DNA from: Candidatus Acidiferrum sp.
GTDB taxonomy: Bacteria > Pseudomonadota > Alphaproteobacteria > Dongiales > Dongiaceae
Reading direction: 5' to 3'
NCBI GenBank assembly: GCA_035518775.1
Contig: DATIXH010000347.1
Coordinates: 1-27,965, forward strand
DNA: 27,965 nt
Below the pieces are notes generated by a model. That model was not told the origin of the DNA. It worked only from the letters and a program-made list of their open reading frames with translations, and did not search any database. The translations under genes were made by a program, and so were the position numbers. Shown one piece after another: positions 5,738 to 27,207 of this stretch (positions within the stretch are counted from its first letter, which is position 1; each line of letters opens with the position of its first letter).

Positions 5738-5828
5738 TTCTTTTCACTCACGGCAGGAAGGTCGGCTTTCTCAGTGAAGCCGGACATTCCTGCACCGCCA
5801 TCTTGAAGCTTAGGCTGTTGTTAGGCTC

Positions 5829-7553: not shown

Positions 7554-7568
7554 TGGGAGAGCCACTCC

Positions 7569-7709: not shown

Positions 7710-7744
7710 CCCGCCGATTGCGCCCGCTCCGTATACGCAGAACT

Positions 7745-9262: not shown

Positions 9263-9314
9263 CGGTGATCCTCTCTCACGCGCGGCTCAATAGCCGAGCG
9301 CGCATCGCTAGAAA

Positions 9315-9995
9315 CTATTCGGCTGCCGCCGCGGCGCCGAGCAGGCCCTCGCGCACCGCTTCGATATGGCGGCGCATCAGATCCTCTGCCTGTGCGGGAT
9401 CGCGGCCGGCGATGGCACCGACATAGGCGCGGTGGTGTGCGCAATAGGCAGCGTGGCGCGCCGGGGTGAGCGCCACCTGGCGCAACGCGCTCCACTTCGC
9501 CTGTCTGCGCATCGCGTTGAAGGCATCGAAGATGGAGAGCAACAACCCGTTGTGCGCGGCCTCGGCGACCGCGCGATGCAAGCGCCCATCCCAAAGCTCC
9601 CAGGTCTTGGCATCGTGCGCCACCTCGCTCTTCTTCAATAGGCGCTGCATCTGCTCAATCTCCGCGTCGGTCGCGCGCAGCGCGGCCATCCTCGCCAGCA
9701 ACGGCTCGATCAGCAGCCGGGCCTCCAGCGCCTCGCTCGGGCTGGTATGCGATGTGATCATCGTGAGCGCCGTCGGGAGCGGTGTCGGGCGATTGCCGAC
9801 GAAGGTGCCCTGGCCGACGTGCCGCCAGATGCGCCCCTCTGCCTCCAACACCTCCAGGCCTTCGCGCAGCGCGCTGCGGCTGAGCTTCAGCATGGTTGCA
9901 AGCTCGCGTTCCGGTGGCAGCTGACTGCCCTGGGCAAATTCCGGCTGCTCAAGCAGTGCCGCGAGGCTGTTCAGTGCACGATCCCGACGACTCAT
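9315..9995 (-). CDS. GntR-family transcriptional regulator (FadR/FCD subfamily)
   Basis: 226-aa ORF. N-terminal wHTH (PPERELATMLKLSRSALREGLEVLEAEG) followed by an all-helical FCD-like C-terminal domain. Confidence 0.85.
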   Translation of the reverse strand: MSRRDRALNSLAALLEQPEFAQGSQLPPERELATMLKLSRSALREGLEVLEAEGRIWRHVGQGTFVGNRPTPLPTALTMITSHTSPSEALEARLLIEPLLARMAALRATDAEIEQMQRLLKKSEVAHDAKTWELWDGRLHRAVAEAAHNGLLLSIFDAFNAMRRQAKWSALRQVALTPARHAAYCAHHRAYVGAIAGRDPAQAEDLMRRHIEAVREGLLGAAAAAE

Positions 9996-9996
9996 T

Positions 9997-10108
9997 TTGA
10001 TACCATTGATCCATTGGTCTCAAAACGCGCTTTTGTTGACACACGAACACTGCAAATGCAAGCGTGTCATCCGTAAGTCAAATCTAAACCAATTCACATT
10101 GGTATCAA
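9997..10108. promoter_or_regulatory. Divergent promoter region with inverted repeats TTGATACCATTG (9997..) and CAATGGTATCAA-like (..10108), candidate GntR operator(s)
   Basis: The intergenic region between the divergent GntR and ABC-transporter genes is AT-richer. TTGATACCA at 9997-10005 is the reverse complement of TGGTATCAA at 10100-10108 (11 of 12 over the extended site). A local near-palindrome TTGATACCA-N8-TGGTCTCAA matches the t.GT...AC.a half-site style of FadR-type operators. Confidence 0.35.
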
Positions 10109-10127
10109 CTGAGCCCCGGGAGGCACC

Positions 10128-10949
10128 ATGATCGACACACGTTTAACCCAGCGCGTCGCCGCCGCCGTCACCTTTGCCGGCATCGCCCTCATCGGCAGCC
10201 ATACCTTCGCGCAGGACATCAAGGCGCCGGATTCAATCGTGAAGGCCGGCAAGATTGTCTATTGCACCGATATCAGCGCCCCGCCGCTCAGCTATTTCGA
10301 TGAGAACAATCAGCCGATCGGCTCGGACATCGATTTTGGCCAGGACATCGCCAAGCGCTTCGGCGTGAAGGCCGAGTTCGCCAATACGCCGTTCGACGGC
10401 ATCATCCCTGCGCTCCAGGCTAAGCAATGCGACGCCATCATCTCGGAACTGTTCGATAAGCCGAAACGCCGCGAGGTGGTCGACTTCGTGGACTATATGT
10501 ATTCCGGCCAGCAGTTACTGGTCGAGAAAGGCAACCCAAAGAACATCAAGAGCCTCGAAGATCTCTCCGGCGTGAAGATCGCGGCCCAGAACGGCACGAC
10601 CATCCAGAGCCTGGTTGAGGAACAGAATAAGAAGTTCGCCGCCGCCGGCAAGCCGCCGGCCGATCTGGTGATCTTCCCGAAGGACACCGACGCACTGCAG
10701 GCTCTGCAAATTCACCAGGTCGATGTCTACGGCACTACCGTGGAAAGTGCCGGCTTTTACTTGCTGAAGGCGCCCGACGCGTTCGAAGTGGCCGGCGAAC
10801 CCTTTGCGAAAATCGTGGCCGGCATCGCGACCCGCAAAGACGACACGGAGCTCCATGAAGCGATCCAGAAAGCATTCGACGCGATCAAGGCCGATGGCAC
10901 CGCGCTCAATATTTTGAAGAAGTGGCATATAGAGGGCAGCGTGCTTTAA
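10128..10949 (+). CDS. ABC transporter periplasmic substrate-binding protein, polar amino-acid (family 3) type
   Basis: 273-aa ORF with a signal peptide (AAAVTFAGIALIGSHTFAQD), SBP_bac_3-like composition and an RBS GGGAGG before the ATG. Confidence 0.85.
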   Translation: MIDTRLTQRVAAAVTFAGIALIGSHTFAQDIKAPDSIVKAGKIVYCTDISAPPLSYFDENNQPIGSDIDFGQDIAKRFGVKAEFANTPFDGIIPALQAKQCDAIISELFDKPKRREVVDFVDYMYSGQQLLVEKGNPKNIKSLEDLSGVKIAAQNGTTIQSLVEEQNKKFAAAGKPPADLVIFPKDTDALQALQIHQVDVYGTTVESAGFYLLKAPDAFEVAGEPFAKIVAGIATRKDDTELHEAIQKAFDAIKADGTALNILKKWHIEGSVL

Positions 10950-10958
10950 AGTCCCACT

Positions 10959-11738
10959 ATGCAATTCAGCTGGGATATCTTCACGCAGCATCTATTCGAG
11001 CCGAGCTCGTTCTTTCTGCACGGGCTCTGGCTCACCCTTTCCATCAGCGCTATCTCGCAGAGCATCGGCACCGCCCTAGGCGTTGCCGGTGCTCTGGGCA
11101 CGCAATCGCGCTTCCGCGGCGTCCGCATCGTGGTGGCGTTTTACATCTGGCTGTTCCGCGGCACGCCACTGCTAGTGCAGATCGTGTTCGTCTATACCGC
11201 CCTTGCGGCCGCCAACATCTTCCGCTTCCAGGACATGGATCTCGGTTTCGTGGTTATCCCCGGCAACATCCAGGCGGGCATTTTCGCGCTGAGCCTCAAC
11301 GAAGGCGCCTATATGACTGAGATCGTGCGTGCAGGCATCCTATCCATCGACCATGGCCAGACGGAAGCCGCGAAGTCGCTCGGCATGACCTATTTCAAGC
11401 TGATGCGGCGCATCATCTTGCCGCAGGCGGCGCGGGTGATCATCCCGCCGCTGGGCAATGAGTTCAATGCCATGCTGAAGAATACGACTTTGCTCAGCGT
11501 GATCGGTGTGCCGGAGATGATGCAGGTGACCGAGACTCAGATCTCGGCGACCTTCCGCTCCTTCGAGTTGCTGAGCGTAATTGCACTCTATTACCTGACC
11601 CTCACCACACTGTGGGGCTTTGCACAACGCGCCCTCGACCGACGCTTCGGCGAAGCCAAGGGCAGCCGTGCGCAGAACGAAAGCATGGTCGGTCGATTGC
11701 GCCGGCTCCTGATGCCGAGCCGGGATGTGTTGCGATGA
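10959..11738 (+). CDS. ABC transporter permease, polar amino-acid (His/Glu/Gln/Arg/opine) family
   Basis: 259-aa ORF with multiple TM segments and the EAA-like loop (EAAKSLGMTYFKLMRRIILPQA). Confidence 0.85.
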   Translation: MQFSWDIFTQHLFEPSSFFLHGLWLTLSISAISQSIGTALGVAGALGTQSRFRGVRIVVAFYIWLFRGTPLLVQIVFVYTALAAANIFRFQDMDLGFVVIPGNIQAGIFALSLNEGAYMTEIVRAGILSIDHGQTEAAKSLGMTYFKLMRRIILPQAARVIIPPLGNEFNAMLKNTTLLSVIGVPEMMQVTETQISATFRSFELLSVIALYYLTLTTLWGFAQRALDRRFGEAKGSRAQNESMVGRLRRLLMPSRDVLR

Positions 11739-11762
11739 GCGAGACCGCCGGGATGTGATGCG

Positions 11763-12530
11763 ATGAGTGAGAACATTGTCGAAGCAACCAACGTCGAGAA
11801 ATGGTTCGGCAACCATCAGGTGCTGAAGAACGTCTCCATGACAGTGAAGCGCGGCGAGGTTGTCGTGATCGTCGGCCCGTCTGGCTCCGGCAAAACCACC
11901 TTCATTCGCTGCGTCAATCATCTGGAGAAAATCCAGAAGGGCCGCATCCTGGTGAACGGCCATCTGATCGGCTATCGCGAGCGCAACGGGCAATTGATTG
12001 AGGATGCCGAGCGCAATATCGCGCGCCAGCGCCGCGATATCGGCATGGTTTTCCAGCGGTTCAACCTGTTTCCGCATCTGACCGCCCTCGGCAATATCAT
12101 TGAGGCACCCATCCAGGTCCGGGGCGTGCCAAAGGACGAGGCGATTGCCACCGCCGGTGCATTACTCGCCCGCGTCGGCCTCGCCGAGAAAGCCAACTCG
12201 TACCCGGCGCAACTCTCAGGCGGCCAGCAACAGCGCGTCGCCATCGCTCGCGCGCTCGCCATGAAGCCAATCCTCATGCTGTTTGACGAGGCGACCAGCG
12301 CCCTTGACCCCGAGATGATCGGCGAGGTGCTGGAGGTGATGAAGGAACTTGCCCGTGACGGCATGACTATGATCGCGGTGACGCATGAGATGGGTTTCGC
12401 CCGCGAGGTCGCCGACCGCGTCATCATGATGGATGACGGCAAGATCGTCGAAGACACGCCGCCCGACCGGTTCTTCACCACCCCGCGTTCCGAGCGTAGC
12501 AAGGCCTTCCTCGCCCGCATCCTGCATTAG
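11763..12530 (+). CDS. ABC transporter ATP-binding protein (polar amino-acid importer ATPase)
   Basis: 255-aa ORF. Walker [13 protein letters not shown] signature [15 protein letters not shown], Walker [14 protein letters not shown], and an H-loop. Confidence 0.9.
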
Positions 12531-12626
12531 CTCTTCCAGTTGAAGACGTAGGGCGTCAGCACTCTGCTCAACATCGACGACAATCCAAAGCGACGGAGCA
12601 TGGCGTCAAAGAGCGAAGGAGATCCA

Positions 12627-13394
12627 ATGGCGAATGAAACTGACACCCCCGTCGCGCTCATCACCGGGGCGTCGCGCGGCATTGGCCGCGCGACCGCGGA
12701 GACTCTCCTAAGAGAGGGGTATGATGTTCATGCCACATTCATCAGTCGCCGGGACTCGGCTGAAAGCCTGTTCAACGTCGCCAATGCGCTTGGCCGCAAA
12801 CTGACACTACATCAATACGACGCGGCTTCCCGCGAAAGCCAGGATCTTCTAATCCAGCACCTGTCGAAGACAAAGCTCCGAGCCATCGTGCACAACGCCG
12901 GCGTGGTACGGTTTGAGCGCTTCACCGATTATGACCAGAATATTTGGGATCAGACGTTCGAGATAAATCTCAACTCGGCTCTGCGGTTGACCCTCGGACT
13001 TCAGAACCGGCTGTCATCCGGCGCTTCTATTGTGCTGGTAGCCTCCACCGACGCGTTCGTCGGATCCTACGCAAGCATGGCCTACGCCGCCTCTAAGACA
13101 GCGATGACAAATCTGACCCGCAGTCTCGCTTGCAACTTCGGCCCGCGAAACATTCGTGCAAACGCTGTTGCCCCGGGCTGGATAAGTACGGACATGACAA
13201 CGGCAGCGTCCTCCGGTTCATCGTCTGTTACTCCGCTTGGGCGCGACGGCAGACCTGACGAGGTCGCCAACGCGATCGCGTTCCTGCTGTCGGACCGCGC
13301 AAGTTTCATCACGGGTACTACGTTGGTAGTTGATGGCGGCTATACCTCGTCGGACCCAATCATGCTGAATGAAGCACGCGAAATTGTTGGATAG
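12627..13394 (+). CDS. Short-chain dehydrogenase/reductase (SDR), low-GC gene
   Basis: ORF 12600..13394. Start moved to ATG 12627 (AAGGAG, then 5 nt, then ATG). Cofactor motif TGASRGIGRATA, NAG motif NAGV, catalytic YxxxK (YAASK). GC is visibly lower (~55%) than in flanking genes. Confidence 0.8.
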   Translation: MANETDTPVALITGASRGIGRATAETLLREGYDVHATFISRRDSAESLFNVANALGRKLTLHQYDAASRESQDLLIQHLSKTKLRAIVHNAGVVRFERFTDYDQNIWDQTFEINLNSALRLTLGLQNRLSSGASIVLVASTDAFVGSYASMAYAASKTAMTNLTRSLACNFGPRNIRANAVAPGWISTDMTTAASSGSSSVTPLGRDGRPDEVANAIAFLLSDRASFITGTTLVVDGGYTSSDPIMLNEAREIVG

Positions 13395-14194
13395 CGCTCG
13401 TTGCGAAAGGAATGTCCCTACTGAAAACTAGATTCGGGCGTAGCGGTGATGCAATCCGCCGACCTTGGGTTCGGCAATGATGCGACCAAATCGCTCAATT
13501 GGCCGGCCGATCGGCGCATCCTTGACTAGCGACAGGTGCGTGCGAGACTCGTTGTAGTAGCTGGCATACATCGCCACAATCCGGCGAAGGTGCGTCTCGC
13601 CGAGCACAATCACTTGGTCAGTGCATTCGAGCCGTACCGAGCCGATCAAACGCTCTGCGTAGGCGTTTTGCCAGGGCGACCGCGGCGCGGTTGGTCGATC
13701 CCGGACCCCGAGCGCACGCAGACGTCGCCTCACGACGTGGCCATAGACGGCGTCTCGATCGCGCACCAGATATCTGGGCGCTGTGTCCCACGGGAAGGCC
13801 TCGGTCATCTGCCGAGCAACCCAGTCAGCCGTCGGATGCGCCGTTATGGCGTGGTGAACGAGCTCCCTTCGGCCCCTACAGAGCTTTCGCTGACGGCAGC
13901 CATCGCGGCGGACCAGTTTGCGCGTGAGGCCTGTCCGCTAAAGAGCTCGCAGGCGCGCTGCTCTCCATGATGGCCAGGAGCCCATCGAGCTCCAAATTAG
14001 AGGCCGGATACATTGATGCAAGACCGCTCACCGCCAACTCGACGAACCCTCTTGCAACGCACCGCCGGACCATACATTGGTTCACACAGAGACTATCTGG
14101 CCACGTCCGCAGAAAGGCAGGTAATCCCCAGCTAGCGGACGTCTCGTCTTCGTTCGCGTGGAGTTTGAAGCCGGATGTGCAAACCCGTTGTACG
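13395..14194. mobile_element. Insertion-sequence remnant (transposase fragment plus flanking non-coding DNA)
   Basis: Contains the truncated transposase frame above plus ~250 bp without coherent coding signal. Lies between a low-GC cargo gene and the integrase gene. Confidence 0.45.
13428..13937 (-). pseudogene. DDE transposase/integrase-core (rve-like) C-terminal remnant, N-terminally truncated
   Basis: Open frame of 170 codons with no proper start (first ATG at 13808). It carries the conserved IS-transposase C-terminal region RSPWQNAYAERLIGSVRLEC...YYNESRTHLSL. The N-terminal catalytic domain is missing. Confidence 0.6.
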
Positions 14195-15421
14195 CTATCT
14201 CTGTTTGCCCCGGAGCTTTACGACCTTTGCTGCCGGTTTGCCGGCCATCGCGGCGGCGATCCGCCGGCCAATGGCTTCATTGGCGACCTTCACCGGGTCA
14301 TGATCCAAGTGCGCATATCTCGCAGTCGTCTGCGGCTGCGAATGGCCCAGAAGCTTGCCAATCATCGGTAACCCCATGCCAGACCCAGCGCCGACGCTGG
14401 CAAAACTATGACGTAGATCGTGCAGGCGAACATCGTCGAGCCCGGCCGTCTTGCGGATGCGTCGCCACGGTTTTTCCAAATTGACCAGATGCGCCCCCGT
14501 CTTGCCGCCGACGATCACATATGGATTGCCTGTCACGCGCGGAAGGGCGTCTAGAACGGCACGGGCCGGAGCGGACAGGTGGATCGTCTTGGCGCCGCTC
14601 TTGCTGTCCGGCAGGCGGGCGATGCCCTTGTCCAGGTCGATCCATTGCCACCGGAGCGTGAGGACTTCCGTCATGCGGGCACCGGTGAAGATCAGCAGCC
14701 GCACCGCCGCTACCTGATAGAGTTTTGCAGGATCGGCTTCGGCCGCCACCAGCGCGTCACCGAGGCGGGTCAATTCATTGGGCCTCAGGAAGCGTTCCCG
14801 TGGGCGCTCAGCGTACTTTTCTAGTCCCTGGCATGGATTATCCCCAGCCAGCGGGAAACCGTTGCGGTGGCCCCAGCCGAGTATCTTGGACAGCAGGGTC
14901 ACGGTCCTGTTGGCGGTCACCCGAGTGGGTCGCAGCTTGTAATGCAGGGTGCCGACATGCACAGCCGTCAGGTCGGGGACGCGGACGGCGCCCAGCTCCG
15001 GCAGGATCAGCCGATCGATGAGGGCGCGATAGGTCTGCTCGGTGCGCGGCTTCTTTTTGGCGACGTGAATTTCGAGGAACTGTTCCGCCAGCCGGCGGAC
15101 GGTTTGTGTCGGGTCGAGCTTCTTTTCATCAGCGGGATTGGCGCCCTCGACGACGCGCCCCAGGATACGCAGCGCCTCTTGCCGGGCCGTGTCCACCGTC
15201 CAGGGCGAGCCGTACTTGCCGATGGTGTAGCGCCGTTTGGGCGCCGCTCGGCCGCTGCCCTGCCGATATTGCACGAAGAATGTCTTGCTGCCGCCGGGCG
15301 ACACTTTCAGGCCAAAACCGATCACCTTCCGGTCGAACATGAGCTTAGTCGCCAACCGGCCCTTGCGCATGGCCGGTTTCGCCGCGTCGATCCTGCCCTT
15401 GGTCAGTCCTTGCGCTGCCAT
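14195..15421 (-). CDS. int: Tyrosine-type site-specific recombinase (phage/ICE-family integrase) with N-terminal Arm-DNA-binding (DUF4102-like) domain
   Basis: ORF 14195..15670. Start moved to ATG 15421 (AAGGGGG RBS), giving MAAQGLTKGRIDAAKPA... A P4-type Arm-binding N-terminus, and C-terminal catalytic boxes HDLRHSFAS and TTARYAHL with the nucleophilic Tyr. Confidence 0.85.
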   Translation of the reverse strand: MAAQGLTKGRIDAAKPAMRKGRLATKLMFDRKVIGFGLKVSPGGSKTFFVQYRQGSGRAAPKRRYTIGKYGSPWTVDTARQEALRILGRVVEGANPADEKKLDPTQTVRRLAEQFLEIHVAKKKPRTEQTYRALIDRLILPELGAVRVPDLTAVHVGTLHYKLRPTRVTANRTVTLLSKILGWGHRNGFPLAGDNPCQGLEKYAERPRERFLRPNELTRLGDALVAAEADPAKLYQVAAVRLLIFTGARMTEVLTLRWQWIDLDKGIARLPDSKSGAKTIHLSAPARAVLDALPRVTGNPYVIVGGKTGAHLVNLEKPWRRIRKTAGLDDVRLHDLRHSFASVGAGSGMGLPMIGKLLGHSQPQTTARYAHLDHDPVKVANEAIGRRIAAAMAGKPAAKVVKLRGKQR

Positions 15422-15561
15422 TATCGCCCCCTTACGCCAGCACCCACCGAGTACCCACGGCACTAGGTAGTCATGGCGGGATGTGACGGCAAGAGGATGC
15501 TGGAAATATCTGCTTTTCTGCGCTCCTGACGATTTCTGGCGGCTTGAGCGAAGCTTGAACT

Positions 15562-15611
15562 GCAGTTTCCTAAACCGTAGGTCGGGTGTTCGAGTCACCC
15601 CGGGGACGCCA
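15562..15611 (+). other. tRNA-Arg(CCU)-like 3' fragment ending in CCA (anticodon arm, variable loop AGGTC, T-arm GGGTG-TTCGAGT-CACCC, acceptor 3' strand CGGGGAC-G-CCA); candidate attR of an integrated element
   Basis: Perfect T-arm and a 3' acceptor strand plus CCA are present. The anticodon loop is TTCCTAA. No complementary 5' acceptor strand (GTCCCCG) and no D-arm occur upstream, so this is a fragment, not a gene. It lies 140 bp from the integrase start. Confidence 0.45.
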
Positions 15612-15630
15612 CTCCAGCACAAGACTGGGC

Positions 15631-15685
15631 GCCAAATTGGTCCGGCATCACTGAGCGGTTCGGCCGGCAATTTGGCCTTTTCCCC
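15631..15685 (+). terminator. Long stem-loop (GCCAAATTGGTCCGGC ... GCCGGCAATTTGGC) followed by CTTTTCCCC: likely the native terminator of the tRNA gene whose 3' end is the att fragment
   Basis: A ~14-bp stem with a 2-nt bulge, a 16-nt loop and a downstream T-run on the plus strand, 20 nt after the CCA. Confidence 0.45.
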
Positions 15686-15764
15686 GCTGATGCGGTGTCG
15701 GTACCATCGACACTAAACTCGTCGACGATCGACCGAAGGGTCATCGCAGAGCATTCTAAGTTGC

Positions 15765-15795
15765 AGGGCCCCTCTCGCCATGCGGGAGGGGCCCT
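15765..15795 (-). terminator. 13-bp near-perfect hairpin (AGGGCCCCTCTCG-CCATG-CGGGAGGGGCCCT), 13 nt downstream of the Zn-ribbon gene stop
   Basis: Thirteen contiguous pairs with one G-U and a 5-nt loop. No clear U-tract, which is common for high-GC alphaproteobacterial terminators. Confidence 0.4.
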
Positions 15796-15807
15796 AACGA
15801 GTCTCGA

Positions 15808-16122
15808 CTAATCGAAAGCACCGAAGATGTCGTCGAGAAAGCCGCGGCGGCGGCGACCGTCATCGCGGCCGTGTCGACCCCGACGGTCGCCGTCGTCATC
15901 GTCGTCCCGGTCGCGGCCACGCCTGCCATCACGTTCATCGTCGTCGTCGCGACCGCGGGTGCGATCGACTGCGGTACGCGCCTCGGCCGCCGAGCGCTCG
16001 ACGATCTTGTCAAGCTCACCACGGTCGAGCCAGACGCCACGGCATTTCGCGCAATAGTCGATCTCGATTCCTTGGCGATCGGCCATCACCAGGTCGCTCT
16101 CAGCGCAGGATGGGCATTTCAT
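15808..16122 (-). CDS. Zinc-ribbon protein (CPxC ... CxxCxGxWLDxGEL, TFIIB-type Zn-ribbon) with a highly charged Arg/Asp-rich low-complexity tail
   Basis: 104-aa ORF with strong RBS AAGGAGG. Its ATG overlaps the TerC stop (ATGA), indicating translational coupling. The tail RGRDDDDERDGRRGRDRDDDDDGDRRGRHGRDDGRRRRG is low complexity. Confidence 0.7.
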   Translation of the reverse strand: MKCPSCAESDLVMADRQGIEIDYCAKCRGVWLDRGELDKIVERSAAEARTAVDRTRGRDDDDERDGRRGRDRDDDDDGDRRGRHGRDDGRRRRGFLDDIFGAFD

Positions 16123-17135
16123 GTGGCACCTCCTTTGGATTGAGATTCGGGTTTAGCAGGTTGTTGCGGGCTACCGGGCACCCAACCGGTGAAAGCCGGC
16201 GCGGGCACGGGTGGCTTCATCTTGGTCTTGATCAACGACAGCACGATCGAGCCGCCGATGAGCGTTCCGGTGGTGGCCAGAGCAATCTCGGTGGGCATGA
16301 CCTTCTCGCCGAAGATGCCGTTTAGGATCATCTTCGCGCCCACCACGCAGAGCACCAGCGACAGGCCGTATTTCAGGTAGTGGAAGCGGTGGATCACGCC
16401 GGCGAGCGCGAAATAGAGCGCGCGCAGCCCGAGGATCGCGAACACGTTTGCGGTAAGGACAATGAAGGGCTCCTGGGTGATGGCGAAGATGGCCGGGATT
16501 GAGTCGACCGCGAACACAAGGTCGGTGAACTCGATGATGATCAGCGCCAGAAACAGGGGCGTGGCCCACAGCGCGCCCTCCTTCCGGATAAAGAATTTCT
16601 GCCCGTCATACTCGTTCGTCACGCGCAGGTGGCGGCGCGTGAAGGCAATGATCCGATTGTTCGCCAGATCCGGCTCGACGTTGATGCTGAGCAGCATCTT
16701 GATGCCGGTTAAGACCAGGAACGCGCCGAACAGCAGCACGATCCAGTGCACGGTCGAGATCAGCGCCGCCCCCGCCGCGATCAAGAGGCCACGCATGATG
16801 AGCGCGCCCAGGATGCCCCAGAACAGTACGCGGTGCTGGTACTGCGGCGGCACGGCGAAATGGGTGAAGATGAGGACGAAGACGAAGACGTTATCGAGGC
16901 TGAGTGACTTCTCGATCAGATAGCCGGTCAGGAACTCGTAGCCGGCTTGCTCCCCAAGCAAATGGAACACGCCGACGTTGAAGATGCCGGCTAGCACCAC
17001 GTAGAGGAAGCTGAGGAGGAGCGCTTCGCGAACCGACACCGTCTTCGGCCTGCGATGCAACACGCCAAGATCGAAGGCGAGAAGCAGCAGGACGAAACCG
17101 ATGAAGCCGAGCCAAAACCAGATCGTGATGACCAT
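16119..17135 (-). CDS. TerC-family integral membrane protein (Alx/TerC, putative metal/Mn2+ exporter family)
   Basis: ORF 16119..17156. Start moved to ATG 17135 (GGAGGG, then 4 nt, then ATG). About 8-9 TM helices and conserved TerC motifs (SLDNVFVF, EFTDLVFAVDSIPA). Confidence 0.85.
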   Translation of the reverse strand: MVITIWFWLGFIGFVLLLLAFDLGVLHRRPKTVSVREALLLSFLYVVLAGIFNVGVFHLLGEQAGYEFLTGYLIEKSLSLDNVFVFVLIFTHFAVPPQYQHRVLFWGILGALIMRGLLIAAGAALISTVHWIVLLFGAFLVLTGIKMLLSINVEPDLANNRIIAFTRRHLRVTNEYDGQKFFIRKEGALWATPLFLALIIIEFTDLVFAVDSIPAIFAITQEPFIVLTANVFAILGLRALYFALAGVIHRFHYLKYGLSLVLCVVGAKMILNGIFGEKVMPTEIALATTGTLIGGSIVLSLIKTKMKPPVPAPAFTGWVPGSPQQPAKPESQSKGGAT

Positions 17136-18138
17136 CGGACCCTCCAGATGCGCCAACGCCAGTTCGCGGCGTCGAGGCAGGTGGAACAGTCCGACATCGC
17201 AGCCGACGGAGCGATCGACTGCCAGAGGGGCCCGGACCCACGAGCCAAGGCGGCTCGTAGGAGGCTAGGTTGGAAACGACCCGCGGGGTTTCAAGGGGGA
17301 TGGACCGTTAGGCGCCGAATATAGGCAGCGACCGATCAGGTATCAGCGACCATATGACCTACCCGACGTCAGTAGACGGCTGCGCGCGTCGAGCTTCCAC
17401 CCGGAGGACGCAAGCCATAGCGGACGAACGGGCCCGCGGGCCATCATGTCGCGGATCGGGCGGGGCACATCGCCCTTCTGTTTCGCGACCATTGCGATCC
17501 ATGCTGCGACATTCTCTTTGTTAACCGGCAAATCGAAAATTGCCCCGGTGCGGATCGACTGATCACGCGGACAGGCATTCGTCCTCACCGCAGCAGGTCC
17601 ACCTCTCCTGAAGGGAGGCGACTCCACGACGAGTGACCCCACATTCTCAAAGCCGGTTTTTAAGGCTCGATAATCTGATCTCTGATCGCAAAGCGCGCCA
17701 GATCGGGCAGAGAGCCAAGCTCGAGTTTTCGCATGATGGCTTCAGGCAAGGGATGCCGCAGAGAGCCTGGACGATGTCCAGCCTGGTCGACCATCCGGAC
17801 CGGCAGCAAGCTCCCGATATTTGTGCGATATCTAGGATGAGGCGCCCGTACGCGCACGGGGCTACAGAACGGACGATGCCGCATTTTCCGCGAGTAGCCC
17901 GAGCATCAGGTGGACCACGGTAGGGCCCTTGAAATCAAGGGCTGCTACGAGAAGTTCCTGAGCCGAATTGTTGCCGGGCACCAGCGAGGACCACGCCAAG
18001 GACGAACCCACCGCCCAACCGGGCACCAATCGTGCCCAGCCGCGACGAGAAAAACAATCATACTTCAGTGCCCAGTTTCATCCAGCATAGGACGCCACTC
18101 TCACAAGCAACCAGCTATACCGCGCCCGCGTTGCTTGC

Positions 18139-21413: not shown

Positions 21414-21482
21414 GTGGTCGCTAGCTCAGAGGCAGAGCGCCGGGGAGACCCGGAGGCACCGGTTCGAGTCCGGTCGATCACG
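21414..21482 (+). tRNA. Aberrant tRNA-like element (probable tRNA pseudogene): good D-arm, T-arm and acceptor pairing (with one G-U) but a 3-nt 8-9 spacer and a 4-nt anticodon loop
   Basis: GTGGTCG-CTA-GCTC-AGAGGCA-GAGC-G-CCGGG-GAGA-CCCGG-AGGC-ACCGG-TTCGAGT-CCGGT-CGATCAC-G. The T-loop TTCGAGT is canonical. Acceptor stems pair 7 of 7 with one G-U. The anticodon stem closes a tetraloop, so no anticodon can be assigned. No CCA. Confidence 0.35.
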
Positions 21483-21486
21483 CAAG

Positions 21487-21560
21487 AAGAGGATAGCTCA
21501 GATGGTTAGAGCAGATGCCTGATAAGCATCCAGTCGCGGGTTCGACTCCCGCTCCGACGC
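21487..21560 (+). tRNA. Aberrant tRNA-like element with anticodon GAU (Ile-like): canonical D-arm, anticodon arm, variable loop and T-arm, but the acceptor stem pairs only 3 of 7
   Basis: AAGAGGA-TA-GCTC-AGATGGTTA-GAGC-A-GATGC-CTGATAA-GCATC-CAGTC-GCGGG-TTCGACT-CCCGC-TCCGACG-C, followed by TCC (no CCA). Internal arms are all perfect; the 5' strand AAGAGGA does not complement the 3' strand TCCGACG. It sits 4 nt after the previous tRNA-like element. Confidence 0.35.
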
Positions 21561-21889
21561 TCCGGTTCAGCCTGTTACGCTGAATTCCACTGTAGGGAAC
21601 CGGACGCGCGCTTCAGTCGCGGTCCGGTCGCCTGGCCGAAAGGCCTTCCGTCCGAACTGAGACACCGTGAGACCGGCCCTGCGCCGCGGCGGATATCGCC
21701 TGCGCGGGTCGCCGGGTCCACCCTTCGAGCGTCAGGCTCCGGTCTGGCGACAGGAGAGGTGTGCCCGCCGTCCCGCCTCGCTCAAGCCCCGGTCCGCCGC
21801 TCCCGCGGGAAGAACGCGTCCGGGACCCGTGTCCTCCAGATGAACCTGCTCCGCGGCTCTGTCGCGGGGCCAAGGAAAGGAGACGTGTC

Positions 21890-23041
21890 TTGAGTCGTTT
21901 TCTGCTGATGCTGCGCGTGACGGTGAAGGACGGCGAGCGTGCCCTCCTGCTGCGCAACGGCCGCTACGAGCGGGCGCTCGGTCCCGGCCGCCACCGTCTG
22001 TTCGATCCGAAGCGCGAGCTGACGGTCGAGAGCTTCAAGGTCGTGCAGGCCGAGTTCTCGGCCGAGCGCTACGCCGTGATCAAGGCGGAGCGGCCGGAGA
22101 TGGCGGCTGCGCTGTTCGAGGCGGTGGAGACGCGGGCCAACGAGCTCGCCATCGTCAGCCTCGACGGCCGTCCGACGCACCTGGTCGGCCCGTGGAAGCT
22201 GCGCGTGTTCTGGAAGGTGGCGACGGCTGTGACGGTCGAGCGCATCGACACGGCCAGCGACCCGACGGTCGACCCGCGCCACCTGGCGCTGATCGACCGC
22301 GCGCACAACCCGTTCGCGGCCGAGACGGTGGTCGAGAACCACGAGGCCGGCCTGCTCTATGTCGAGGGCCGGCTGGTGGAGCGGCTGGCGCCGGGCCGTC
22401 ACACCTACTGGACGGTGAACCGCAAGGTCGAGGTGAAGCGCCTGGATCTGCGCCCGCAGGCGGTCGAGATCACGGCCCAGGAGATGCTGACCAAGGATCG
22501 CATCGCCCTGCGCGTGACCCTGACGGCGCTGCGCCGCATCACCGATCCCGAGCGCGCGGTCGCTGCGGTCGTGGACGTGGATGCGTGGCTGTACCGCCTG
22601 GTGCAGTTCGCCATCCGCGAGGCGGTGGCGGCCCGCACGCTCGACGAGGTGCTCTCGGCCAAGAGCGTGCTCGACGCGGAGCTGCGCAGCTTCGTGCGCG
22701 AGCGCCTGGGCGAGACCGGCATCGAGGTGACGGAGCTCGGCGTGAAGGACGTGATCCTGCCCGGCGAGATCCGCGAGCTCGTGAACAAGGTGGTGGAGGC
22801 GGAGCGGACGGCGAAGGCCAACCTGATCCGCCGCCAGGAGGAGACCGCGGCGACGCGTTCGCTCCTCAACACCGCCAAGCTGATGGAGGAGAACCCGCTC
22901 CTCCTGCGGCTGAAGGAGCTCGAGAGCCTCGAGCGGCTGGTGGAGAAGGTGGGCCGCATCGATCTCCACGCCGGCGAGGGCGCAGGCCTCGATGCGCTGC
23001 TCAGCAAGCTGGTGCGCCTGAAGGCGGACGAGCCGGCATGA
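21890..23041 (+). CDS. SPFH/band-7 (stomatin/HflK-C/flotillin-like) domain protein, soluble, with a partial duplicated SPFH N-terminal module and a C-terminal coiled-coil
   Basis: ORF 21761..23041. Likely start TTG 21890 (AAGGAAAGGAGA RBS, 6-nt spacer) or ATG 21908. Two copies of the SPFH-opening motif (DGERALLLRNGRYERALGPGRHRLF and EAGLLYVEGRLVERLAPGRHTYW), then a complete band-7 core (ITAQEMLTKDRIALRVTLTALRR...LIRRQEETAATRSLL). No TM helix. The antisense ORF 21782..22969 is a mirror. Confidence 0.8.
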   Translation: MSRFLLMLRVTVKDGERALLLRNGRYERALGPGRHRLFDPKRELTVESFKVVQAEFSAERYAVIKAERPEMAAALFEAVETRANELAIVSLDGRPTHLVGPWKLRVFWKVATAVTVERIDTASDPTVDPRHLALIDRAHNPFAAETVVENHEAGLLYVEGRLVERLAPGRHTYWTVNRKVEVKRLDLRPQAVEITAQEMLTKDRIALRVTLTALRRITDPERAVAAVVDVDAWLYRLVQFAIREAVAARTLDEVLSAKSVLDAELRSFVRERLGETGIEVTELGVKDVILPGEIRELVNKVVEAERTAKANLIRRQEETAATRSLLNTAKLMEENPLLLRLKELESLERLVEKVGRIDLHAGEGAGLDALLSKLVRLKADEPA

Positions 23042-23070
23042 GGGCGGCGTGAGGGCGGTACAGCGGAGAG

Positions 23071-23098
23071 GCCGCGTCGAGGAGACGCGGCCTTTTTC
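23071..23098. terminator. Bidirectional intrinsic terminator between the convergent SPFH and histidine-kinase genes (GGCCGCGTC-GAGGA-GACGCGGCC plus TTTTT)
   Basis: Perfect 9-bp GC-rich stem with a 5-nt loop, followed by T5 on the plus strand and preceded by an A/G-rich stretch. Located between stops at 23041 and 23108. Confidence 0.7.
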
Positions 23099-23107
23099 GT
23101 GCCGGTG

Positions 23108-23890
23108 TCAGGCGGCTTCGGCCGCCGGGAGATAGATCGTCACGGTCGTGCCCTTGCCGGGCGCGCTCACGAGCGTGACATAGCCGCCGGACTGGCGGGC
23201 GAACCCCTCGACGGTGCTGAGGCCCAGCCCCCTGCCCTTGCCGCCGCGCTTGGTCGAGAAGAAGGGATCGAAGGCGCGGCGCGCCACGTCAGGCGTCATG
23301 CCCGTACCGGTGTCGGTGACGGCAAACGCGATGTAGAGACCGGGCGCGACGTCCACCAGCTGCTGCGCCTGCGCTTCGGCGATGCGCGCACTCCCCGCCT
23401 CGAGCAGCAGGCGGCCGCCCTCGGGCATCGCGTCGCGGGCGTTGCTTGCCAGAGCCATGGCCGCCACCTCGAGCGCCGCGGGATCGGCCAGCGCCGGCCG
23501 CAGGCCGCCGGCACAGGCCAGCTCGACCGCGATGGCGCCGCCGAGCGTGCCGCGCAACCGCTCGGAAAGTCCCGCGACGAAGCGCTCGACTTCGATGGGT
23601 TGCGGCCGTAGCGGCAGCCGCCGCGCCACCGCGAGAAGACGGCGGGTCAGGTCCGCGGCGCGCTGGGCGGCCTCGGCGATCAAGGTTGCCATCTCGTGGG
23701 TCGGCGTGCCCGCCTCGAGCTTGGCCGTGAGCATCTCGCTGTTGCCGAGGATGGTCATCAGCAGGTTGTTGAAGTCGTGCGCCACGCCGCCGGCGAGCTG
23801 GACGACCGCCTGCGTCTTCTCGGCCTGCCGCAGCTGCTCGTCCCGCGCCGCGCGCGCGGCCTCGTCAGGGCTGTCGGAACCGGTCGTCAT
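23108..23890 (-). CDS. Soluble histidine kinase core (HisKA plus HATPase_c) without recognisable sensor or TM domain
   Basis: 260-aa ORF. H-box GVAHDFNNLL; N, G1, F and G2 boxes (SNARDAMPEGG, DTGTGM, GKGRGLGLSTV). Only ~35 aa precede the H-box. The start ATG overlaps the stop of the upstream oxygenase-fusion gene (ATGA). Confidence 0.85.
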   Translation of the reverse strand: MTTGSDSPDEAARAARDEQLRQAEKTQAVVQLAGGVAHDFNNLLMTILGNSEMLTAKLEAGTPTHEMATLIAEAAQRAADLTRRLLAVARRLPLRPQPIEVERFVAGLSERLRGTLGGAIAVELACAGGLRPALADPAALEVAAMALASNARDAMPEGGRLLLEAGSARIAEAQAQQLVDVAPGLYIAFAVTDTGTGMTPDVARRAFDPFFSTKRGGKGRGLGLSTVEGFARQSGGYVTLVSAPGKGTTVTIYLPAAEAA

Positions 23891-25059
23891 CCCGTTCGGG
23901 ACGTCTCTGCGGGGGCGGCGGAACCCGCGACCGCGCGCTTCACCTCGTCGCGCAGGCGGTCGTCGGCGAGGTAGCCCAGATTGGCTTCGCGCAGCTTGGC
24001 GCCGGATTCGTCGTAGAGGAACGGCAGAACGGCGTAGCGCCGGCCGCGCGTCACCGGGAGCGCCTCGTGCATGAGCGAGCAGGAGAAGACGATGGCCCCG
24101 CCGCTCGGCGCCCGGTAGCTCTCGCGCCCGAACTCCGGGAAGCAGAGGTCGCCGCCGTCGTAGTCCTCGGCGTTGAGGTTGATGGTCACGGCGAAGCGGC
24201 GATGCGCCGTGCCCTTGGTGGTGTTGTCGCGATGCGGCCGGAAGTAGCCGCCCTCGCCGGCGTCGTAGCAGGCGACGATGTAGCGCTCGATGTAGCTGAC
24301 GCGGAACTGGAAGGCCTTGCGCACCTCCGGCACCAGACGGCGCTCGATGCGGATGCGGATGCCCTGGCGCGCGGCGGCGTCCTCGATCACGTAGTCGCGC
24401 CGGCGCTTGCGGCCGTAGTCGATGACGCCGACGGTCTTGCCCGCGGCGTCGGAGGTCATGTAGCCGCTATCCTCGCCGCCGTGGCGATCGTAGAGCGCCA
24501 TCAGTTCGCGGCAGAACTCGGGCTCGAACAGCTGCGGCACCAGCAGGACCGGGGCGCCGGCCCGGGCGGGCCGCACGCCGCCCAGCGGCGGCAGACGGCC
24601 GATAAGGTCGAGCAGATGCTGGGCGTGGGCAGCCGGATCGGCGATCGGCAGCACCGCCAGCACCCGCAGCGCGGGATCGAGGAGGAAGGTGGTCGGCTGG
24701 TAGCGCGAGGCCTCGGCCGTGGCCGCCGGCTCGCTGCAGACGCCGTAGCGGGCGCCGATCTTGAGGCCGAAGTCCCACAGCAGCCGGAAGCCGGGAATGC
24801 GCTCCTCGACCCGCTTCTCCTGCCCGTCGGCGGGATCGGCGCCGACGCCGAAGAAGGAGGCGTGGCCGTCGTCGAAGACGTCGCCGCGCTGGCGGAGCGC
24901 CGCCAGCATCTGGGCAATGGCCGGGTTGCCGGCCGAGCCGTAGAAGCAGAGGGCGATATAGCGCCCAGCCACAGAGTCGAAGTGGTAGCGCGGGTTGTTC
25001 GGCGACGGCGCGATGAACCAGGGGGCGGGGTCGCCGGGGGTCAGGCGGGCGGTCGTCAT
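23887..25059 (-). CDS. Fusion protein: N-terminal AhpC/TSA (redoxin, thioredoxin-fold)-like domain lacking the canonical peroxidatic Cys motif, plus C-terminal 2OG-Fe(II) oxygenase (PiuC/YbiX/prolyl-4-hydroxylase-like) domain
   Basis: ORF 23887..25137. Likely start ATG 25059 (MTTARLTPGDPAPWFIAPS, a Prx-like opening). The redoxin-like region (YIALCFYGSAGNPAIAQ) has GNPA where TPVC would be. The C-terminal domain has the facial triad HRD...(DYDGGDLCF)...H (MHEALPV) and an RxA/S-type 2OG-binding site (RGRRYAVLPF). Confidence 0.75.
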   Translation of the reverse strand: MTTARLTPGDPAPWFIAPSPNNPRYHFDSVAGRYIALCFYGSAGNPAIAQMLAALRQRGDVFDDGHASFFGVGADPADGQEKRVEERIPGFRLLWDFGLKIGARYGVCSEPAATAEASRYQPTTFLLDPALRVLAVLPIADPAAHAQHLLDLIGRLPPLGGVRPARAGAPVLLVPQLFEPEFCRELMALYDRHGGEDSGYMTSDAAGKTVGVIDYGRKRRRDYVIEDAAARQGIRIRIERRLVPEVRKAFQFRVSYIERYIVACYDAGEGGYFRPHRDNTTKGTAHRRFAVTINLNAEDYDGGDLCFPEFGRESYRAPSGGAIVFSCSLMHEALPVTRGRRYAVLPFLYDESGAKLREANLGYLADDRLRDEVKRAVAGSAAPAETSRTG

Positions 25060-25121
25060 GCCGGCCGACGATACCACATTTCGCCGGCCGCACGGGGTCG
25101 GCCCGATGGCGCACCAGATCC

Positions 25122-25149
25122 GAGCGATGGACCCCATGCCAAGCGGGGA
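25122..25149. repeat. Copy 1 of a ~28-nt repeat (GAGCGATGGACCCCATGCCAAGCGGGGA); overlaps the first possible start codon of the oxygenase-fusion ORF
   Basis: Direct repeat shared with 25241.. and 25391.. (about 24 of 28 identical). On the minus strand each copy reads CCGCTGGGCATGGGGTCC(A/T)TCGCTC, an ATG in a fixed context. Confidence 0.6.
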
Positions 25150-25240
25150 CGAACCGCCGGGAAGGAAGATTCACCACCGAGACACAGAGGACATAGAGAA
25201 GGGAGATTGCCCGCTTACGCGGGCCGGGCGTCTTCCGTTT

Positions 25241-25270
25241 GAGCGAAGGACCCCATGCCCAGCGGAGGGG
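25241..25270. repeat. Copy 2 of the ~28-nt repeat (GAGCGAAGGACCCCATGCCCAGCGGAGGGG)
   Basis: 119 nt from copy 1. On the minus strand it opens a 13-codon mini-ORF, MGSFAQTEDARPA. Confidence 0.6.
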
Positions 25271-25390
25271 ATCCGACCGTGCGGTTTGTCGGGGGTTTGT
25301 AGGGGGGCCTCCGCGTGGGCGCCCTCTATCCAGCGATCAGCCCGAAAGGGGCGACCACATGGGGTCGCCCCTACACCATGAGGCGAATCG

Positions 25391-25419
25391 GAGCGAAGGA
25401 CCCCATGCCCAGCGGGAGC
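25391..25419. repeat. Copy 3 of the ~28-nt repeat (GAGCGAAGGACCCCATGCCCAGCGGGAGC)
   Basis: 150 nt from copy 2. Immediately preceded by a perfect 10-bp hairpin (25347..25372, AGGGGCGACC-ACATGG-GGTCGCCCCT). Confidence 0.6.
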
Positions 25420-25572
25420 ACAACCCCAACCCCAGGCATAGCACCCTCGCGTAACTGGGGCGCGGTCTTGTTGCGGATACACGATGTCAAAGATCGACCG
25501 GCCAAGCCGAGTGGGCCCGGCTCAGCCAGATGCCAAATATGTGAACGAAGATGGAACATATCAAGCTCCCCG

Positions 25573-26280
25573 CTAAGGCTCCAGCACGCAGTTGACGGCC
25601 AGTTCCGGCATCGTCGCCTCATTGGGCAGGGCGATGGCGAGGGCGGCGAGCGTGGCGATGGTTTCGGGCGGCGTCATGGACGCAGACGGGAAATTGGCGT
25701 CGGCCGTCATGTCGGTGGCGACGTAGCCGGGGCAGATCGCGGTGGCGCGGATGCCATGCGGCCAGCCGCTGTGGCGGACGCCGCGGATGAGGGCGACCAG
25801 GGCGAACTTGCTCATGGCATAGCCGGTCATGGTGGCGCCCTTCACGCGCTTGCCGGACATCGAGGCGATGCCGACGATGCGGCCCGCGCCGGTCGCCTTG
25901 AGGTGGGGGAAGGCGGCGTGGATCAGGCGCCACGGGCCCTTCGCATTGACATCCCACATGGCGTCGAGGTCGGCCTCGGTGCCGGTCTCGATATCGGCAT
26001 CGAGGGCGATGCCGGCGTTGGCGACGACGGCGTCGATCCGCCCGAAGCGGGCCATCGTGGCGGCGACCCAGTCCTGGGCGCTCTTGGCCGTGCGCGCGTC
26101 ATATGTCGCGACCAGCAGGCGATCGGCCTCCATGCCGCGGGCCGCCTCGTCGGCGGCGGGCGACGGCCGCATGCCCAGGCTCAGGCGATAGCCGTCGTCA
26201 TAGAGACGGCGCGCGATCGCCCGGCCGATGCCGCGGCTGGCGCCGGAAATCATCACCACCCGTTCTAGTGCGGACAGCAT
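25573..26280 (-). CDS. Short-chain dehydrogenase/reductase (SDR)
   Basis: Real gene inside the 740-aa ORF 25573..27795, whose N-terminal 500 aa are Arg-rich mirror sequence. ATG at 26280 with an AGGAGG RBS. Motifs ISGASRGIGRA, NAG (ANAGI) and YxxxK (YAMSK). 235 aa. Confidence 0.85.
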   Translation of the reverse strand: MLSALERVVMISGASRGIGRAIARRLYDDGYRLSLGMRPSPAADEAARGMEADRLLVATYDARTAKSAQDWVAATMARFGRIDAVVANAGIALDADIETGTEADLDAMWDVNAKGPWRLIHAAFPHLKATGAGRIVGIASMSGKRVKGATMTGYAMSKFALVALIRGVRHSGWPHGIRATAICPGYVATDMTADANFPSASMTPPETIATLAALAIALPNEATMPELAVNCVLEP

Positions 26281-26367: not shown

Positions 26368-27207
26368 TTGAACTTGGCGGCGCAATCGGCTTTGCTCGGC
26401 GCCGCCATGCAACCGCTCGACAACTTTCCCGTGGCGGCGCGGCGACGCATCCGCGGCGTCCTCGCCGACATCGACGATACCCTCACCACCGACGGCAAGC
26501 TGACGGCCGACGCCTATGGCGCGCTCGAGCGGCTGCAGGCGGCGGGGTTCCTGGTGGTGCCCATCACCGGCCGGCCGGCCGGCTGGTGCGACCACATCGC
26601 GCGCATGTGGCCGGTCGACGCGGTGGTGGGCGAGAACGGTGCGTTCTATTTCCGCTACGACGCGGCGGCGCGCAAGCTGGTGAAGCGGTTCCTGGTACCG
26701 GCCGAGGAGCGGGCCGCCAATCGCCGGCGGCTGGAGGCGGTGCGCGACCGCATCCTGGCGGCGGTGCCGGGCGCGGCCCTGGCCTCGGACCAGCTCTATC
26801 GCGAGGCCGATCTGGCCATCGATTTCCGCGAGGACGTGGCGGAGCTGCCGCCCGCCGCGATCGACCGCATCGTCTCGCTGTTCGGCGAGGCCGGCGCGAC
26901 CGCCAAGGTCAGCTCCATCCACGTCAACGGCTGGTTCGGCAGCTACGACAAGCTGGGCATGACGCGCATCCTGCTGCAGGAATGCTTCGGCATCGATCTC
27001 GACGCGCGACGCGACGAGTTCGTGTTCGCCGGCGATTCCCCCAACGATGCGCCGATGTTCGCGTTCTTCCCGAACGCGGTCGGAGTCGCGAATGTCACCG
27101 ACTTCGCAGATCGTCTGAGCGCCCTGCCCGCCTATGTCACGCGCAGCCGCTGCGGCGCCGGCTTCGTCGAACTGGCGGACGCGCTGATCGCGGCGCGCGC
27201 CGCGTAG
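26368..27207 (+). CDS. HAD-superfamily hydrolase, subfamily IIB (Cof/sugar-phosphate phosphatase-like)
   Basis: 279-aa ORF (TTG start; alternative ATG at 26407). Motif I DIDDTLT, motif III K..., motif IV GDSPND, and a Cof-type cap insertion. Confidence 0.8.
   Translation: MNLAAQSALLGAAMQPLDNFPVAARRRIRGVLADIDDTLTTDGKLTADAYGALERLQAAGFLVVPITGRPAGWCDHIARMWPVDAVVGENGAFYFRYDAAARKLVKRFLVPAEERAANRRRLEAVRDRILAAVPGAALASDQLYREADLAIDFREDVAELPPAAIDRIVSLFGEAGATAKVSSIHVNGWFGSYDKLGMTRILLQECFGIDLDARRDEFVFAGDSPNDAPMFAFFPNAVGVANVTDFADRLSALPAYVTRSRCGAGFVELADALIAARAA

Follow-up and report, generated by a model that had tools for sequence, protein, structure and literature searches.

Within contig DATIXH010000347.1 (27,965 bp, analyzed at its full length and referred to here as the window), two adjacent genes on the minus strand encode a protein combining a peroxiredoxin (Prx)-like domain with a 2-oxoglutarate (2OG)-Fe(II) oxygenase, and a short histidine kinase, respectively (Table 1). 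The first of these is referred to below as the fusion gene. A preliminary description of this DNA, made from the sequence alone, had interpreted the pair as a candidate oxygen- or redox-sensing module, in which the hydroxylase serves as the sensor of the kinase. The region delimited there extended to position 25560 and took in a repeat-bearing leader of approximately 500 nt; the real start of the fusion gene is at 25059. The longest open reading frame (ORF) of this gene (23887..25137, minus strand) has 416 codons for amino acids (aa), and its ATG falls in the first copy of a 35-nt repeat. Because the homologous proteins begin with MTTxRLTPGDPAPWF and the ATG at 25137 is part of the repeat, the ATG at 25059 was taken as the true start. 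The spacer separating the fusion gene from the upstream short-chain dehydrogenase (SDR) gene is about 510 nt long and repeat-bearing in the window, about 30 nt long in most relatives and about 620 nt long in locus L168. The repeat copies look like an inserted element of the REP/MITE type.

Table 1. Coordinates of the distinguished features of the fusion-kinase locus and its surroundings.
Feature	Position	Strand	Description
Fusion gene	23887..25059	-	390 aa; N-terminal peroxiredoxin-fold domain without peroxidatic Cys and C-terminal PKHD/P4H-like 2OG-Fe(II) oxygenase
Peroxiredoxin-like (AhpC/TSA, BCP-type) domain, aa 8-133	24661..25038	-	Pfam PF00578; alignment to Prx 2ywn
2OG-Fe(II) oxygenase domain, aa ~170-350	24010..24552	-	Pfam PF13640
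Oxygenase ligand codon H276	24232-24234	-	
Oxygenase ligand codon D278	24226-24228	-	
Oxygenase ligand codon H331	24067-24069	-	
Oxygenase ligand codon R341	24037-24039	-	
Kinase gene	23108..23890	-	260 aa soluble histidine kinase core; without input domain, without receiver
Stop/start overlap ATGA, fusion gene/kinase gene	23887..23890	-	Read from sequence
SDR short-chain dehydrogenase gene	25573..26280	-	235 aa; Pfam adh_short; conserved upstream member of the clade cluster SDR - fusion - kinase
HAD-type hydrolase (Hydrolase_3) gene	26368..27207	+	Divergent from the cluster; conserved synteny anchor
SPFH/Band_7 protein gene	21761..23041	+	Convergent with the kinase gene; conserved synteny anchor; start codon uncertain
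GC-rich hairpin, 10 bp	23069..23093		Between the convergent kinase and SPFH/Band_7 genes; T-run after it on the + strand
35-nt repeat, 3 copies (GAGCGAAGGACCCCATGCCCAGCGG...)	25122-25156, 25241-25275, 25391-25425		3 matches, 0 expected by chance

Pfam searches confirmed the domain composition proposed earlier for both proteins, i.e. AhpC-TSA (E 6e-10) and 2OG-FeII_Oxy_3 (E 2e-12), both above gathering scores, in the fusion protein, and HisKA and HATPase_c in the kinase. The iron- and 2OG-binding residues, which the preliminary description had regarded as intact, proved to be so: H276, D278, H331 and R341 (numbering of the 390-aa protein) are invariant in an alignment of 14 diverse homologues (54-85% identity). 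The HxD...H triad H276/D278/H331 is aligned with the ligands in the solved structure of PiuC, with 'HRDN' opposite 'HIDN' and SLMHEALPVTRGRRYA opposite SLHKVNPVTRGARYA. The putative ligand of the 2OG C5-carboxylate, R341, lies on the strand after the distal His within 'TRGRRYA', which is aligned with 'TRGARYA' of PiuC. An Arg ten residues past the distal His is common to the fusion protein and the PKHD/prolyl 4-hydroxylase (P4H) group, in which its best sequence and fold matches are also found.

An AlphaFold2 model of the fusion protein had a pLDDT of 78 and a pTM of only 0.58. Foldseek searches with its C-terminal half returned PiuC, Sbal_3634, PPHD, PHD2, vCPH and the lysyl hydroxylase LH3 (E 1e-8 to 6e-10), and the model and these matches agree on a double-stranded beta-helix fold. 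The predicted fold and the triad are shared with PiuC/YbiX (PDB 9ghl, 9qn0-4, 3dkq), PPHD-EF-Tu (4iw3), PHD2 and vCPH, but identity to these proteins is about 17-20% and none of them carries an N-terminal peroxiredoxin-fold domain. The best score against the PiuC/YbiX equivalog model (NCBIfam PRK05467) was 41 bits, compared with cut-offs of 143-399 bits. The earlier designation of the oxygenase as P4H/PiuC-like is correct; the fusion protein is a relative of PiuC/YbiX and not a member of that group.

The N-terminal half of the model matched BCP/PrxQ peroxiredoxins (target-normalised TM-scores 0.74-0.83), with which (2ywn, 3drn, 5epf) it shares the thioredoxin/Prx fold and the PAPxF, FGVS.D and xxD motifs. 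In contrast to these enzymes, the peroxidatic PxxxTxxC is replaced by GSAxxPA throughout the fusion family: at the peroxidatic site of Prx 2ywn, 'FYPAAFTQVC' stands opposite 'CFFGSAAEPA' in the family profile alignment. Since the TxxC position reads GNPA in the window protein (GSAGNPA) and 'aepa' in the family profile ('gsaaepa'), the peroxidatic Cys, whose loss had been noticed in the window protein, is absent family-wide. Thiol peroxidase chemistry is therefore not expected, and this domain is predicted not to be a thiol peroxidase. In collagen prolyl 4-hydroxylase, an alpha2-beta2 enzyme, the P4H catalytic subunit is paired with the thioredoxin-fold protein PDI, which is non-catalytic in hydroxylation. 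The fusion protein may be seen as an analogous combination of a P4H-type oxygenase with a thioredoxin-superfamily module, here of the Prx type and fused in cis.

The kinase consists of a HisKA domain (E 3.5e-8; aa 31-90, positions 23621-23800) and an HATPase_c domain (E 3e-18; aa 136-257, positions 23120-23485), in accordance with the complete core without an input domain that had been described. The phospho-acceptor H38 (23777-23779, minus strand) is located within the H-box 'AHDFNNLL', only 36 residues precede this box, and the CA motifs SNARDAM (N), DTGTGM (G1), FDPFFSTK (F) and GRGLGLS (G2) are present. The best NCBIfam cores were PRK13557 and CckA-like kinases. The match to PRK13557 is restricted to positions 147-397 of 540, so the protein corresponds to a DHp-CA core without PAS or receiver modules. 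It shares the H-box and a canonical CA domain with the PRK13557/CckA-like alphaproteobacterial kinases of PAS-HisKA-HATPase_c-REC architecture, to many of which it is 50-59% identical, but differs from them in having neither PAS nor receiver; it is a truncated member of this hybrid kinase group. As stated previously, no response-regulator gene is adjacent: a receiver-domain hidden Markov model (HMM) applied to all window ORFs of 50 aa or more had no match at E<=10 (positive control, 6.6e-62), and Pfam scans of the larger window ORFs likewise detected no receiver domain. The partner regulator may be encoded elsewhere in the genome.

The genomes nearest to the window fusion gene are metagenome-assembled genomes (MAGs) of Dongiaceae, so the Rhizobiales setting assumed in the preliminary description was not upheld. 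Across the clade the gene order is conserved, with a divergent HAD hydrolase gene, then the SDR, fusion and kinase genes, and then a convergent Band_7 gene (the SDR synteny was seen in L165, L166, L168, L169 and L172). The kinase itself varies. In L083, whose fusion protein is 77% identical to that of the window, the same position is occupied by a 713-aa kinase with a transmembrane (TM)-PAS-PAS-HisKA-HATPase-REC architecture. A PAS-containing histidine kinase (HK) of 365-376 aa represents another form (P0141, P0145, P0148, P0150-P0154), while the HK-core form of 247-262 aa comprises the window kinase and about 29 others. The kinase is absent at the locus in L084, L091-L093 and L100; the genes downstream of the fusion gene in the kinase-less L091 and L093 are unrelated (flavodoxin-like, fatty-acid hydroxylase, or without a Pfam match).

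The short kinases retain the N-terminal peptide of the PAS kinases, 'MTA(R/G)(P/Q)DSEEE..AAR', and the end of the PAS-to-DHp linker, '(E)EQSRQAEKTQAV', which also occurs in L083 and in generic family members. Because these two segments are common to the short kinases, the PAS kinases and L083, the short form is the product of an in-frame PAS deletion. With modules lost step by step, the kinase lineage leads from the 713-aa TM-PAS-PAS-HK-REC protein through a PAS-HK of about 370 aa to an HK core of about 260 aa. The kinase, which had been described as having no sensor, is a PAS-deleted derivative of a PAS kinase and was not built without one. Since the L083 kinase, with its own TM and PAS modules, lies beside a fusion gene, the adjacency of the two genes is older than the loss of the sensor.

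Co-orientation of the fusion and kinase genes, which are 0-60 nt apart, was observed clade-wide, and co-transcription of the two genes across the clade is likely. The ATGA overlap, on which the earlier claim of translational coupling was based, is present in the window and otherwise only in L081/L082; in the remaining relatives the two genes are separated by 10-60 nt, and this spacer ends in a conserved ttgacgacATGAC. Coupling of translation is not conserved.

Purifying selection acts on the short kinases as strongly as on their PAS-containing relatives. The dN/dS ratio of the window kinase versus its relatives was 0.21-0.35; for pairs of short kinases the median was 0.31 (range 0.17-0.47, dS about 0.5) and for pairs of PAS kinases 0.29. 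The H, G1 and G2 boxes were found in 37 of the 37 kinases compared, the window kinase keeps every catalytic box, as do nearly all 29 short kinases, and nine independent kinase loci contained no frameshifts or stop codons.

The fusion family is large. More than 7,800 database proteins have the same two-domain architecture (approximately 360-400 aa), at least 593 matches were confirmed in species-representative genomes, and the family spans Alpha-, Beta- and Gammaproteobacteria, Planctomycetota, Cyanobacteria and Verrucomicrobia, its carriers including Azospirillum, Sphingobium, Pseudomonas carbonaria and Rhizobium ruizarguesonis. Among 80 genome loci, a short kinase gene was found downstream of the fusion gene only in L001, a Dongiaceae MAG (81% identical). 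In the 80 metagenome loci a downstream kinase was present only where the fusion protein was at least 77% identical to that of the window, and relatives with fusion proteins 71-74% and 66% identical had no kinase. A more sensitive kinase-core HMM added one same-strand abutting case only, the Planctomycetota pair L054/L056. Outside the clade of at least 77% identity, the kinase was absent next to the fusion gene in approximately 150 of 153 loci; a lack of co-occurrence in related genomes was among the findings that the preliminary description itself had named as speaking against its proposal.

For 164 loci, ORFs delimited from stop to stop and lying no more than 4 kb from the fusion gene were clustered. 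No ORF cluster was present in more than 14 of them, and the 9-locus clusters comprised close relatives of the window only. With no conserved neighbourhood, the function of the fusion family could not be deduced from gene context. The core function of the family therefore does not involve a kinase. This large and uncharacterised hydroxylase family is arguably the more valuable lead provided by the locus.

Within the clade, the presence of the fusion gene and of the PAS domain is complementary. All short-kinase loci with upstream DNA available (at least 10) carry the fusion gene, whereas the gene has been lost, with scars left behind, from all five PAS-kinase loci for which upstream DNA is available; no locus clearly lacks both the fusion gene and PAS. 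In L165 (6814-7985 of a 265-kb ENA contig) the gene is frameshifted or fragmented: ahead of an intact short kinase gene, its sequence is spread over two or more frames. The contig looks like a long-read one, and indel errors of such reads may have caused the split, the alternative being a frameshifted pseudogene. L165 is the only locus where a short kinase may be present while the fusion gene is not intact.

Fusion-gene scars upstream of the PAS kinases were located in L166 (640-840), L169 (2372-2568) and L172 (1007-1135). They have common boundaries, comprising fusion aa 1-20/34 and a piece of approximately aa 102-125 (inverted in L169), while L167 and L170 represent further deletions of the scar state that also removed the 3′ part of the SDR gene. 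The boundaries common to L166, L169 and L172 point to a single event of fusion-gene loss, and the complementary pattern may come down to just two events, in sister lineages. Neighbor-joining (NJ) trees of the kinase core conflict with this single-loss reading: the short and the PAS kinases were each monophyletic in only 0-1% of bootstraps, and the PAS locus L169 grouped with the short loci L168/L094 at 81-96% bootstrap support, a hint that PAS was lost more than once where the fusion gene was present. The pattern was considered as statistical evidence and dropped, because the number of independent events is too small.

A natural 627-aa protein combining Prx-like, oxygenase, DHp and CA parts in one polypeptide occurs in a sister lineage of Dongiaceae, on several metagenome contigs that show the conserved gene order. 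Its representatives P0255/P0258 originate from JGI metagenome contigs, and an unfused 387-aa protein, P0260, belongs to the same 90% cluster. The oxygenase, with its residues intact, takes the place of an input domain, 18 residues ahead of the H-box. In the kinase half, the N-box Asn and the G1 and F boxes have been lost and no HATPase_c match was obtained; this half is 43% identical to the window kinase, compared with 74-75% for the fusion halves. By its motifs the fused protein is a pseudokinase and not a working sensor kinase. It is unique in a 5.8-billion-protein database, and given this and the degenerate CA domain, little weight was placed on it as Rosetta-stone evidence of a functional link.

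In two Planctomycetota MAGs, L054 (5914-10260) and L056 (5932-10236), the fusion gene is followed by a gene for a 507-524 aa kinase and then by one for an NtrC-type sigma-54 regulator. The three genes lie on the same strand, with stops and starts nearly abutting. For the L056 kinase, Pfam returned a weak match below threshold (E 0.006) to a four-helix-bundle sensor module. These loci represent an independent case of adjacency between the fusion family and a two-component system.

We consider it about an even chance (a probability of approximately 0.5) that the window locus is a lineage-specific operon of Dongiaceae-like alphaproteobacteria, in which a normally stand-alone hydroxylase is accompanied by a truncated orphan kinase. 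The SDR - fusion - kinase operon would have been inherited by descent. The hydroxylase would perform the function of its own family, in which a protein or peptide is probably hydroxylated in the manner of prolyl/lysyl hydroxylases, and the Prx-like domain would serve as a binding or regulatory module (both roles as judged from fold and motifs only). The 260-aa protein, given its retained motifs, would be an active soluble orphan kinase phosphorylating a regulator encoded elsewhere, and its output would depend mainly on the level of operon expression and on partners from other loci. The data can be explained without the hydroxylase acting directly on the kinase, and the components are new members of known families. 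In these terms the locus presents a natural domain-loss series, from 713 through 370 to 260 aa and to the fused pseudokinase, in which selection persists past the loss of PAS, and which is useful for asking how input-less kinases are regulated.

Several observations weigh against this explanation. The co-directional, near-abutting genes have stayed together at dS of approximately 0.6-0.76, and genes so arranged are often functionally linked. An input-less kinase under purifying selection needs regulation, and the sole co-expressed candidate for this is the hydroxylase. At least 10 short-kinase loci carry the fusion gene (frameshifted or fragmented in L165) and all five PAS-kinase loci have lost it, a 627-aa polypeptide uniting the two proteins occurs in several metagenomes, and an unrelated Planctomycetota lineage has the order fusion gene, kinase, NtrC-type regulator.

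The same observations bring the preliminary proposal back into view, in the tentative form that in this lineage the Prx-like/2OG-oxygenase protein was recruited as the trans-acting input of the PAS-less kinase; we regard such a two-protein sensor as possible, though not likely. The signal would be conveyed through binding that depends on O2, Fe(II), 2OG or redox state, or through hydroxylation of the kinase, the latter being very improbable. This idea gains from the tight operon with its ATGA overlap in the window and L081/L082, from a short kinase that by its motifs is catalytically intact and is under purifying selection, and from the complementary distribution of fusion gene and PAS, where trees hint at repeated PAS loss in the presence of the fusion gene. 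The place of the oxygenase in the fused protein, at the position of an input domain, and the independent cluster in Planctomycetota also speak for it. A broader version, according to which the hydroxylase was co-opted as the input module of the PAS-less kinase mostly in trans and, in one sister lineage, in cis, is doubtful.

However, the pairing is missing from about 98% of fusion-family loci, and in the ancestral state represented by L083 the kinase had its own TM and PAS modules, which means that the two genes were not brought together to provide a sensor. The common scars suggest a single fusion loss, which may reduce the complementary pattern to two events, and the ATP-binding domain of the fused protein is degenerate. 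A comparison of the N-terminal tail of the kinase, which is acidic and variable, revealed no conserved Pro, Asn or Lys as a target: in 'MTxxPDSxEE' the Pro position is occupied by P, S, Q or H. Kinases make up, by our estimate, 1-2% of the genes in such genomes, and two kinase-adjacent lineages in approximately 150 loci are therefore close to the chance expectation. A search of the full-text literature available for a 2OG oxygenase or prolyl hydroxylase together with a histidine kinase found no description of such a pair, in line with the earlier remark that the pairing was not recognized as a known system. Selection on the short kinases, the complementary distribution and the natural fused protein lend some life to the claim that the hydroxylase is the sensor of the kinase, without proving it, but in most of the fusion family the two genes are not found together. 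An oxygen-sensing pair is compatible with the comparative data without being called for by them, and their support for it is weak.

A precedent for such an arrangement exists in the H-NOX/HnoK (HqsK) and NosP/NahK systems, where a stand-alone sensor is encoded in an operon with a kinase lacking its own ligand sensor (PMC4436077, PMC6759604). As in those systems, where a small, soluble protein whose metal centre reacts with a gas or cofactor is co-transcribed with the kinase, the window contains a gene for a metal-centre protein directly upstream of a gene for a cytoplasmic kinase without a ligand-binding domain, and the anatomy is similar, with the ATGA overlap and only 36 aa before the H-box. 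There, however, the pairing recurs family-wide and control of autophosphorylation has been shown, whereas the putative pair here recurs only in the clade of at least 77% identity and one Planctomycetota lineage. The putative sensor also differs in kind, being a 2OG/Fe(II) oxygenase. Should the hydroxylase turn out to control the kinase, the pair would represent the first two-component system in bacteria to use a 2OG oxygenase as input, and the oxygenase a new class of accessory sensor beside H-NOX and NosP. Phosphorelay signalling would then be coupled directly to the status of oxygen, iron and central carbon, and such a pathway, responding through a hydroxylase to O2, 2OG, Fe(II) or redox state, would constitute a prokaryotic counterpart of the PHD/FIH logic. 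Such control would also give a first functional handle on an uncharacterised family of more than 7,800 proteins from several phyla.

Less probable still is that the kinase, after losing its TM, PAS and REC modules, no longer signals, is in the course of being lost and persists only because it is a young or tolerated remnant. The progressive shortening from 713 to 370 and 260 aa would fit such decay, as would the complete absence of the kinase in sister lineages, the degenerate CA domain of the fused lineage and the lack of a cognate regulator nearby. The strength of selection speaks against it: dN/dS values at dS of about 0.5 equal those of the PAS-containing relatives, the catalytic boxes are retained in the window kinase and in nearly all short kinases, and reading frames are intact in the nine independent loci. 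The reverse link, in which the kinase pathway, acting with a distant regulator, would control the SDR-fusion operon or the substrate of the hydroxylase and would not itself be acted upon, is the least probable of the explanations considered. In its favour, regulators are commonly placed beside their targets in operons, the SDR gene is still linked to the kinase gene where the fusion gene has been deleted, and the ancestral hybrid kinase possessed sensors. Against it, neither a regulator nor a binding site was identified, and in the window the 510-nt repeat insertion separates the SDR gene from the fusion gene.

At the downstream side of the locus, a 76-nt stretch (23040-23115) containing the hairpin listed in Table 1 has a folding dG of -28.7 kcal/mol (z = -3.6), and the hairpin likely marks the end of the operon. 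No cis-regulatory RNA was detected upstream of the operon by Rfam matches at the gathering threshold within 23-26 kb; the only matches in the rest of the window were the terC riboswitch, the tRNA-like matches and int-alpA described below. P0261, a member of the same 90%-identity cluster as the window kinase, bears the NCBI label 'Candidatus Acidoferrum sp.' (Acidobacteriota); the disagreement between this label and the Dongiaceae MAG that is the closest fusion-gene genome locus is probably a MAG binning conflict.

The remaining part of the window differs in base composition, GC content being 0.56-0.67 in positions 1-18000 and 0.65-0.73 in 18-28 kb. The low-GC region carries a gene for a P4-type integrase with an Arm-DNA-binding domain (14195-15670, minus strand). 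An int-alpA small RNA match (4211-4280, minus strand) is located beside two ORFs without Pfam matches (3400-4191 and 4379-5641). Positions 1-18000 may represent an integrated element. Two adjacent tRNA-like Rfam matches were found at 21414-21483 and 21491-21555 (plus strand; 39 and 52 bits, respectively); ARAGORN called just the former and assigned it an abnormal anticodon of two bases. The two matches may represent degenerate tRNA genes, or else remnants, for instance of an att site.

The ORF at 1518-3272 (minus strand) specifies a further signalling protein of the window, in which the catalytic domain of an adenylate/guanylate cyclase is joined to TPR repeats, and a weak Guanylate_cyc gene was noted near the cluster in the relative L081. 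Finally, a terC riboswitch (Rfam RF03067, 60 bits) was identified at 17182-17243 (minus strand), directly upstream of a gene encoding a TerC-family membrane protein (16119-17156, minus strand).

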